From a virus (Duplodnaviria > Heunggongvirae > Uroviricota > Caudoviricetes), in the IMG/VR virus record IMGVR_UViG_3300009678_000054, positions 1 to 35,853 of that record: 35,853 nt of DNA, one strand, 5' to 3'. Each line of letters begins with the position of its first letter. The first letter of the stretch is position 1. Both the position numbers and the translations under genes were made by a program. The notes beneath the pieces are model-generated. The model had not been told where the DNA came from, did not search any database, and saw only the letters and a list, made by a program, of their open reading frames with translations. Of this stretch, positions 923-33,826 are shown in pieces.

Positions 923-1106
923 GCCGAGCGGTATTATCGGCTTTGTTTAACTTTTTAAAATCCTGCTTGAAACGATACACAGTAGGTGGTCTCAAGTTCC
1001 GAGAGATCGGCGATAACAATGTAGCCATAATAAGTATCGGAATGAGTGTAAACCTGGGTGAAGACCAGCAGGTAAACATTCGTAAACAACTAAAACGCTG
1101 GTCTTC
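923..1106 (+). ncRNA. candidate structured RNA / cis-regulatory leader (unassigned)
   Basis: 213-nt gap in an otherwise gapless region; several hairpins and a perfect 10-bp helix GAAGACCAGC (1060-1069)/GCTGGTCTTC (1097-1106). Confidence 0.4.
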
Positions 1107-1115
1107 TTTATATTT

Positions 1116-27663: not shown

Positions 27664-27695
27664 TTTGGTAATTCGGGAAAATTATCGTACTTTTG
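27664..27695 (+). promoter_or_regulatory. Bacteroidota-type promoter
   Basis: TTTG, 20 nt, TACTTTTG: full consensus. Confidence 0.8.
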
Positions 27696-33782: not shown

Positions 33783-33814
33783 GAAGCACCGAGTATTTGG
33801 TGCTTTCTTTTTTT
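33783..33814 (+). terminator. intrinsic terminator overlapping the next promoter
   Basis: AAGCACC-N8-GGTGCTT followed by TCTTTTTTT. Confidence 0.75.
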
Positions 33815-33826
33815 ATAGTATCTTTG
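33796..33826 (+). promoter_or_regulatory. Bacteroidota-type promoter
   Basis: TTTG, 19 nt, TATCTTTG: full consensus. Confidence 0.75.

Follow-up and report, generated by a model that had tools for sequence, protein, structure and literature searches.

The Rho-independent terminators and attenuators of early phage genes, such as lambda tR1 downstream of cro, consist of a G+C-rich hairpin followed by a U-rich run, and the lambda nut site is built from a linear motif, boxA, and a hairpin, boxB, whose loop is conserved. Start-codon-sequestering operators, such as the MS2 replicase operator, act through pairing of the next gene's AUG. In the Cellulophaga phage phi14:2, abundant early non-coding RNAs derive from the g004-g006 intergenic regions, and the early promoters share no common motif (bioRxiv 10.1101/2020.03.07.982082).

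Like those phi14:2 regions, the locus described here is non-coding, belongs to the rightward strand and lies close to the left, early end of the genome of a crAss-like phage; it differs from them in size, the phi14:2 regions being ~1.7 kb long. phi14:2 has no DUF932 gene, and neither sequence comparison nor the covariance model of our hairpin gave a match to the gap in its first 12 kb. The window, by which we mean the whole stretch of 35,853 nucleotides that was analysed, covers the first 35.8 kb of an IMG/VR virus contig that is 99.9 kb long and has 37.5% G+C; Bacteroidota-type promoters and relatives of ~120 kb are consistent with a crAss-like assignment of this genome. A gap of 213 nt separates a DUF932-family gene from a zinc-ribbon open reading frame (ORF) and is the largest within the first 5.6 kb, where the other ORFs abut or overlap. 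A preliminary description had correctly picked it out as the largest non-coding stretch in the vicinity, and had interpreted it as a single structured RNA of 193 nt with two pseudoknots, in the leader of the early replication operon. We propose instead that the gap is a composite of two unrelated cis-elements, a hairpin element at 904-949 and an insertion at 950-1110, and we regard this explanation, together with the modes of action suggested for its two parts, as on balance probable. Its features, in window coordinates, are as follows.

100-129, + strand: promoter of Bacteroidota-type consensus (TTTG, spacer, TAnnTTTG) just 5' of the DUF932 gene, from a whole-genome pattern scan
156-902, + strand: DUF932-family gene P0001 (Pfam PF06067, E 1.4e-11; 94 homologues found)
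906-920, + strand: conserved single-stranded motif ending in an invariant CGTGT, 2-5 nt 5' of the hairpin, from alignments
923-941, + strand: conserved hairpin with a 5-bp stem (5-11 bp in relatives) and a near-invariant 9-nt loop, from covariation
942-949, + strand: conserved T-rich tail (TTGTTT-type), which in relatives is followed at once by the next ATG
950-1110, + strand: insertion of ~161 nt relative to L007 and L049, with TTTA at both flanks, single-copy and without terminal inverted repeats
1042-1083, + strand: predicted local hairpin, corresponding to the stacked helices (1040-1081) of the preliminary description; the fold of 1036-1096 has -17.5 kcal/mol, z -3.69
1060-1069/1097-1106, + strand: perfect 10-bp inverted repeat with a 27-nt spacer; predicted fold -21.3 kcal/mol, z -2.4 to -3.5
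1116-1316, + strand: zinc-ribbon gene P0002 of 66 codons, with conserved start and C-terminal motif and a 76% identical homologue, P0101

The placing of the gap in an operon leader found no support. The promoter at 100-129 is one of only three full consensus matches on the + strand in the whole-genome scan (100-129, 27664-27695 and 33796-33826), and it precedes the DUF932 gene in the same arrangement in L004 and L007. The pattern scan found no full match on the + strand from 130 to 27664 and no match in the interior of the gap. Because the sole nearby consensus promoter lies upstream of the DUF932 gene, the gap is probably an internal junction of a long transcription unit rather than the 5' leader of an operon. 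The 904-949 element heads a replication operon of ~27 kb for which no separate consensus promoter was found. The ~27 kb without a full consensus match (130-27664, + strand) is occupied by genes of replication and nucleotide metabolism, all in the same direction.

Relatives were reached through DUF932 homologues to contigs from Logan, ENA and JGI assemblies, and one, L038, was added through a scan of metagenomes for the hairpin motif, which returned this true relative and seven chance matches. Two contigs, L002 and L003, are identical to the window; in seven others (L004, L006, L007, L009, L038, L044 and L049) the DUF932 protein is 55-80% identical to that of the window. Eight distinct versions of the hairpin element are found at this range of identity, and the layout of linear motif, 2-5 nt, hairpin and T-rich tail is kept across the clade. 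The 923-941 hairpin is conserved and its stem covaries. Its four loop-proximal pairs are invariant, as is almost the whole of the 9-nt loop; the two pairs that come next on the outer side change in a compensatory manner, one being G-C in five sequences and A-U in three, the other C-G, A-U, G-C or U-A. In the stem alignment the share of paired cells is 91.9%; shuffles give 81.3 +/- 3.3, and none of 500 matched either this share or the covariation score of the real alignment. Pairing falls to 18-53% when the partner is slid by 1-3 columns, and RNAalifold recovers the same 923-941 helix.

The element is single-copy in the 100-kb genome and always stands 3-20 nt after a stop codon, whatever the flanking genes. 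The next start follows the hairpin at 8-15 nt in seven of eight cases, the exception being the window, and in the relatives nothing but an element of this type separates the promoter-proximal DUF932 cassette from the gene with which the replication module opens. A search with a covariance model built on the hairpin returned no copy from 80 IMG/VR loci whose DUF932 proteins are ~40% identical. An exact scan of IMG/VR for the hairpin-loop motif gave 25 matches in unrelated high-GC sequences, which we attribute to chance. We describe as new this clade-specific, covarying hairpin, whose type is that of a terminator or regulatory element. Ten consecutive bases of the hairpin also occur in the D-arm of type II tRNAs; a tRNA reading was dropped because no tRNA can be built, and ARAGORN called neither tRNA nor tmRNA in the window.

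The covarying stem and the U-tail speak for a terminator- or attenuator-type hairpin in RNA, and the fixed loop and linear motif suggest recognition by something; most likely, then, 904-949 is such an RNA hairpin and is recognised by a factor. The stem has -6.3 kcal/mol in the window and -6 to -13 in the relatives, and 5-8 U are found among the 10 nt after it. As in intrinsic terminators, a G+C-rich stem of 5-11 bp with a U-rich tract directly behind it lies shortly after a stop codon, and, like lambda tR1, the element is placed between the promoter-proximal first gene and the genes for replication and appears weak enough for read-through. Unlike such terminators, it has a near-invariant loop of 9-11 nt and a conserved linear motif on its 5' side, and its conservation goes far beyond the needs of termination. 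Intrinsic terminators have short loops of 3-8 nt, and a terminator scan did not call the window hairpin, whose 9-nt loop exceeds the length that the scan accepts.

The element also recalls a lambda nut site, in that a single-stranded motif, a short spacer and a short hairpin with covarying stem and fixed loop occur once per early operon, downstream of the early promoter and of the first gene. The likeness is one of layout only and not of membership: the sequences are not similar, neither an N-like protein nor another candidate antiterminator was found, and the host belongs to the Bacteroidota. The genes flanking the element have no assigned functions. We consider it quite unlikely that 904-949 is an RNA-polymerase control site of a sort undescribed for crAss-like phages, be it a nut/put-like antitermination signal or an entry site for a virion RNA polymerase. 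A hairpin promoter for an N4-type virion RNA polymerase was rejected, as such promoters occur in several copies with a 5-7 bp stem and a 3-nt loop, against a single copy and a 9-nt loop here.

We propose that, in the transcript, 904-949 would serve as a 3'-end hairpin or would terminate or attenuate transcription weakly, in the intrinsic manner, and would so set the share of transcription from the DUF932 promoter that continues into the replication genes; the conserved loop and the upstream motif would probably be read by a protein or by RNA polymerase. Against this, the window hairpin is weak (5 bp, -6.3 kcal/mol) and its loop too long for the terminator scan. Efficient termination would leave the replication genes of L007 and L049 without a promoter, and plain termination requires neither the conserved loop nor the linear motif.

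What occupies the slot 3' of the hairpin is unrelated from one relative to the next and includes zinc-ribbon genes, HNH endonucleases and small membrane ORFs; the gene 5' of the element is either DUF932 or an extra one of 170-180 aa. HNH/NUMOD4-type homing-endonuclease ORFs, probably with a TTG start, come right after the conserved hairpin at L004:2925-3322 and L044:3277-3772, and gene callers either overlooked these ORFs or reported their C-terminal part alone; in the contig of P0010 this slot is taken by a NUMOD4 gene. Further along in the window, a 196-aa gene at 1687-2277 (phrog_4784, function unknown) is missing from L004 and L006, in which a 125-aa gene is directly followed by a 115-aa gene, and the interval between the hairpin and ~2277 forms a hot spot at which genes are gained and lost. 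In L051, two tRNA-like genes were recognised by eye in the slot after the DUF932 cassette (L051:3664-3830 and L051:4290-4400), neither of them called by ARAGORN or Rfam; one has ~90 nt inserted at the anticodon-loop position, and the other a long variable arm and what may be a UCA anticodon, which would read TGA. The phage clade also carries a tmRNA gene (Rfam RF00023, 83-92 bits; tag peptides from ARAGORN), located as follows.

L002:2219-2683: tmRNA, RF00023 and ARAGORN
L006:653-1078: tmRNA, RF00023 and ARAGORN
L007:1036-1438: tmRNA, RF00023 and ARAGORN
L009:255-625: tmRNA, RF00023 and ARAGORN
L051:600-1003: tmRNA, RF00023 and ARAGORN

In L002, which represents the same phage as the window, the tmRNA lies ~1.3 kb upstream of the DUF932 gene, beyond the start of the window, and a tRNA lies at 354-423.

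The second part of the gap, 950-1110, is a lineage-specific insertion. By alignment the zinc-ribbon ORF that follows it is a real gene, which agrees with its homologues in L007 and L049 in its start, in the CPxC...C..GC pattern and in a C-terminal motif. In these two relatives the gene begins 10-12 nt after the hairpin, so the window carries ~161 extra bases; in other IMG/VR phages the zinc-ribbon homologues abut the upstream gene and have no leader. The insertion is missing from the seven closer relatives and from the 80 IMG/VR loci, and, L254 apart, it shows no similarity to other relatives, to the rest of the genome, to INPHARED or to IMG/VR. A MITE-like mobile element was rejected, as the sequence is single-copy in the genome and in the collections and has no terminal repeats, only TTTA at its flanks. 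A 72-aa ORF (943-1158) was likewise rejected as a protein: its three matches among 1.84 billion representatives are artefacts, namely long tandem-repeat proteins in which weak similarity over 24-40 residues is summed over 5-12 repeats.

Only one other contig contains the last ~90 nt of the insert. This is L254, an ENA contig of 725 nt that encodes a zinc-ribbon protein 76% identical to that of the window and holds the last 92 nt before the ATG. Over window positions 1036-1083 the two are ~90% identical, with 23 of 23 bases shared across the top of the local hairpin; all helix-forming bases of that hairpin are the same, as are 11 of 11 bases of the right repeat arm. The 3' half of the spacer is scrambled in L254, a 1-nt indel shifts the overlapping 1042 frame, and the 3' insert block is better conserved than the coding sequence next to it. 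This pattern of kept arms, diverged spacer and shifted frame argues against a protein and for constraint on the arms, and the protein alternative for the 943/1042-1161 frame, which has no true homologue among the representatives searched, falls with it. The helices show no compensatory change between these two sequences. The conservation in L254 could also reflect DNA-level binding or recent common descent, and the 5' half of the insert has no detectable constraint.

Fold prediction, with dinucleotide shuffles as the reference for z-scores, extends the helix of the 10-bp repeat through 1042-1052/1107-1117, where it pairs the A and U of ATG 1116, and a U-rich run follows this long-range helix. 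In the predicted folds it and the local hairpin at 1042-1083 are mutually exclusive. In L254, 9 of the 10 repeat pairs are kept and the best fold again pairs the AUG in the outer helix. A perfect inverted repeat of at least 10 bp arises in 0.75% of dinucleotide shuffles of the 193-nt region; ~7 of at least this length are expected per 100 kb, and this genome has 13 distinct ones. The repeat is therefore notable locally and not after a whole-window search. Scanning IMG/VR for it gave one match, L052, and the genome_contigs scan gave more than 120 chance matches in unrelated bacteria, which are uninformative. Positions 1094-1107 also have a 14-base perfect inverted match at 2117-2130, 1 kb away and inside an ORF; as a third binding site it was dropped, being consistent with chance, and an unrelated 14-mer of the insert recurs at 50154-50167.

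On these predicted folds, the 3' end of the insert probably forms a hairpin over the next start codon. We propose that the 3' 75 nt can adopt either the local hairpin or the long-range start-codon helix, and that the latter, by pairing the start codon of the zinc-ribbon gene, would damp or gate translation of that gene, or read-through. Such an arrangement would resemble MS2-type operators in that a long-range helix pairs the AUG of the next gene, which a competing upstream hairpin could release, and it would differ from them in its 27-nt loop and in having no known binding protein and two sequences only. Weighing against this part of the explanation, the two sequences share the helices without compensatory change, the L254 folds over the full stretch have z -0.7, which is not significant on its own, and an outer A/U helix is cheap in AT-rich sequence. 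For the gap itself, our data establish conservation, covariation in the 923-941 hairpin, the inserted nature of 950-1110, the absence of a protein or Rfam explanation and the presence of predicted alternative folds; action at the RNA level, termination and start-codon occlusion are what we infer from them.

Every helix listed in the preliminary description is present in the sequence at the following positions, the last segment ending 9 nt 5' of ATG 1116.

923-927/937-941: complementary segments, the stem of the conserved hairpin
962-967/981-986: complementary segments with one G-U pair
973-978 and 1034-1039: complementary segments, the claimed pseudoknot 1
999-1002/1007-1010: complementary segments
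1040-1044/1077-1081: complementary segments
1052-1056/1069-1073: complementary segments
1060-1069/1097-1106: complementary segments, the claimed pseudoknot 2

The observation was accurate base by base and was over-assembled into one RNA. Selected nucleic-acid structure does exist in the gap, in the 923-941 hairpin and in 1036-1110, and covariation was found in the stem of the former and not in the insert arms; a single 193-nt RNA does not survive, as the pseudoknot-bearing 950-1110 is an insertion missing from relatives. Folding of the whole gap (903-1130) yields -54 kcal/mol, where shuffles yield -49.6 +/- 4.0 (z -1.09), and the minus strand of the gap has z -1.11, neither being significant; for 950-1050, the 5' part of the insert that holds pseudoknot 1, z is -0.49. 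Rfam gave no match in the window at gathering thresholds, and at E up to 10 returned only Lnt, on the minus strand (18 bits against a cut-off of 55, E 2.9); nothing was found on the element in L002, L006, L051 or L254. Both claimed pseudoknots are unsupported. In pseudoknot 1, two of the six bases of the downstream arm differ in L254, a contig that ends before the partner arm. An H-type pseudoknot 2 was rejected on the modelled folds, which treat its two helices as alternatives: C1069 would sit in both, and the pseudoknot would use up all but two of the 12 bases in the loop of the hairpin on which it depends. A riboswitch or ribozyme identity is likewise not borne out, 950-1110 being present only in part, in one other contig, and without compensatory change.

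Other readings account for parts of the same evidence. One that we hold unlikely is that ~1036-1118 constitutes a regulatory RNA switch with two states, set by translation, a protein or a ligand, which would control entry into the replication operon by toggling between the local hairpin and a start-codon/terminator helix. The two exclusive and individually stable folds, the U-rich run after the long helix, and the retention in L254 of both sets of arms around a variable loop and spacer, with the overlapping frame broken, are all in keeping with such a switch; yet it has only two sequences without compensatory changes behind it, matches no Rfam family, would be dispensable given its absence from most relatives, and has a 27-nt loop atypical of an expression platform. 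Conserved arms around a variable spacer suit a DNA operator as well, and the 10-bp repeat could then bind a dimeric phage regulator, possibly the adjacent zinc-ribbon protein, with the hairpin serving as a cruciform or single-strand site, either origin-related or for entry of a virion RNA polymerase. The position at the head of the replication module and the single copy of each element would fit, and in phi14:2 the virion RNA polymerase was assayed on denatured DNA and the early promoters have no known motif (bioRxiv 10.1101/2020.03.07.982082). We nevertheless rate action at the DNA level as rather improbable: L004 and L006 have outer stem pairs that are G-T on one strand alone, the + strand, as would suit RNA or a single-stranded + strand better, the third repeat copy at 2117-2130 can be put down to chance, operators seldom have a spacer as long as 27 bp, and GC skew merely tracks transcription direction and gives no local signal at the gap.

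That 950-1110 is functionless, decayed or recombined DNA in a hypervariable slot, with incidental hairpins, has low probability in our view. It would agree with the unrelated cargo of the post-hairpin slot in each relative, with the z of -0.49 in the 5' half and with the z of -1.1 for the whole gap, but it sits poorly with a 3' block that L254 conserves better than the neighbouring coding sequence and whose helix arms contain unbroken matches of 23 and 11 bases, and with a 10-bp repeat at p ~0.008 per region. The original model of one ~190-nt RNA with two H-type pseudoknots, of riboswitch or ribozyme type, is largely refuted and we regard it as extremely improbable. All its complementary segments exist and the region has 14 complementarities between 6-mers against 4.9 in shuffles, yet its first hairpin is part of another element, one that also occurs where the remainder is missing, the region as a whole has z -1.1 and no Rfam match, and each pseudoknot meets the difficulties given above, the shared C1069 and the used-up loop in one and the altered downstream arm in the other.

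Under our preferred explanation of a hairpin element joined to an unrelated insertion, the gap is an ordinary to moderately interesting cis-element and not a riboswitch or ribozyme candidate, and it adds no new class of either. The rest of the gap illustrates that a variable cargo slot can acquire a private start-codon hairpin. Control of early transcription in crAss-like phages is poorly understood, and a covarying, single-copy hairpin between a gene with a host-type promoter and the replication genes offers a concrete, mutable site for tests of termination and antitermination.
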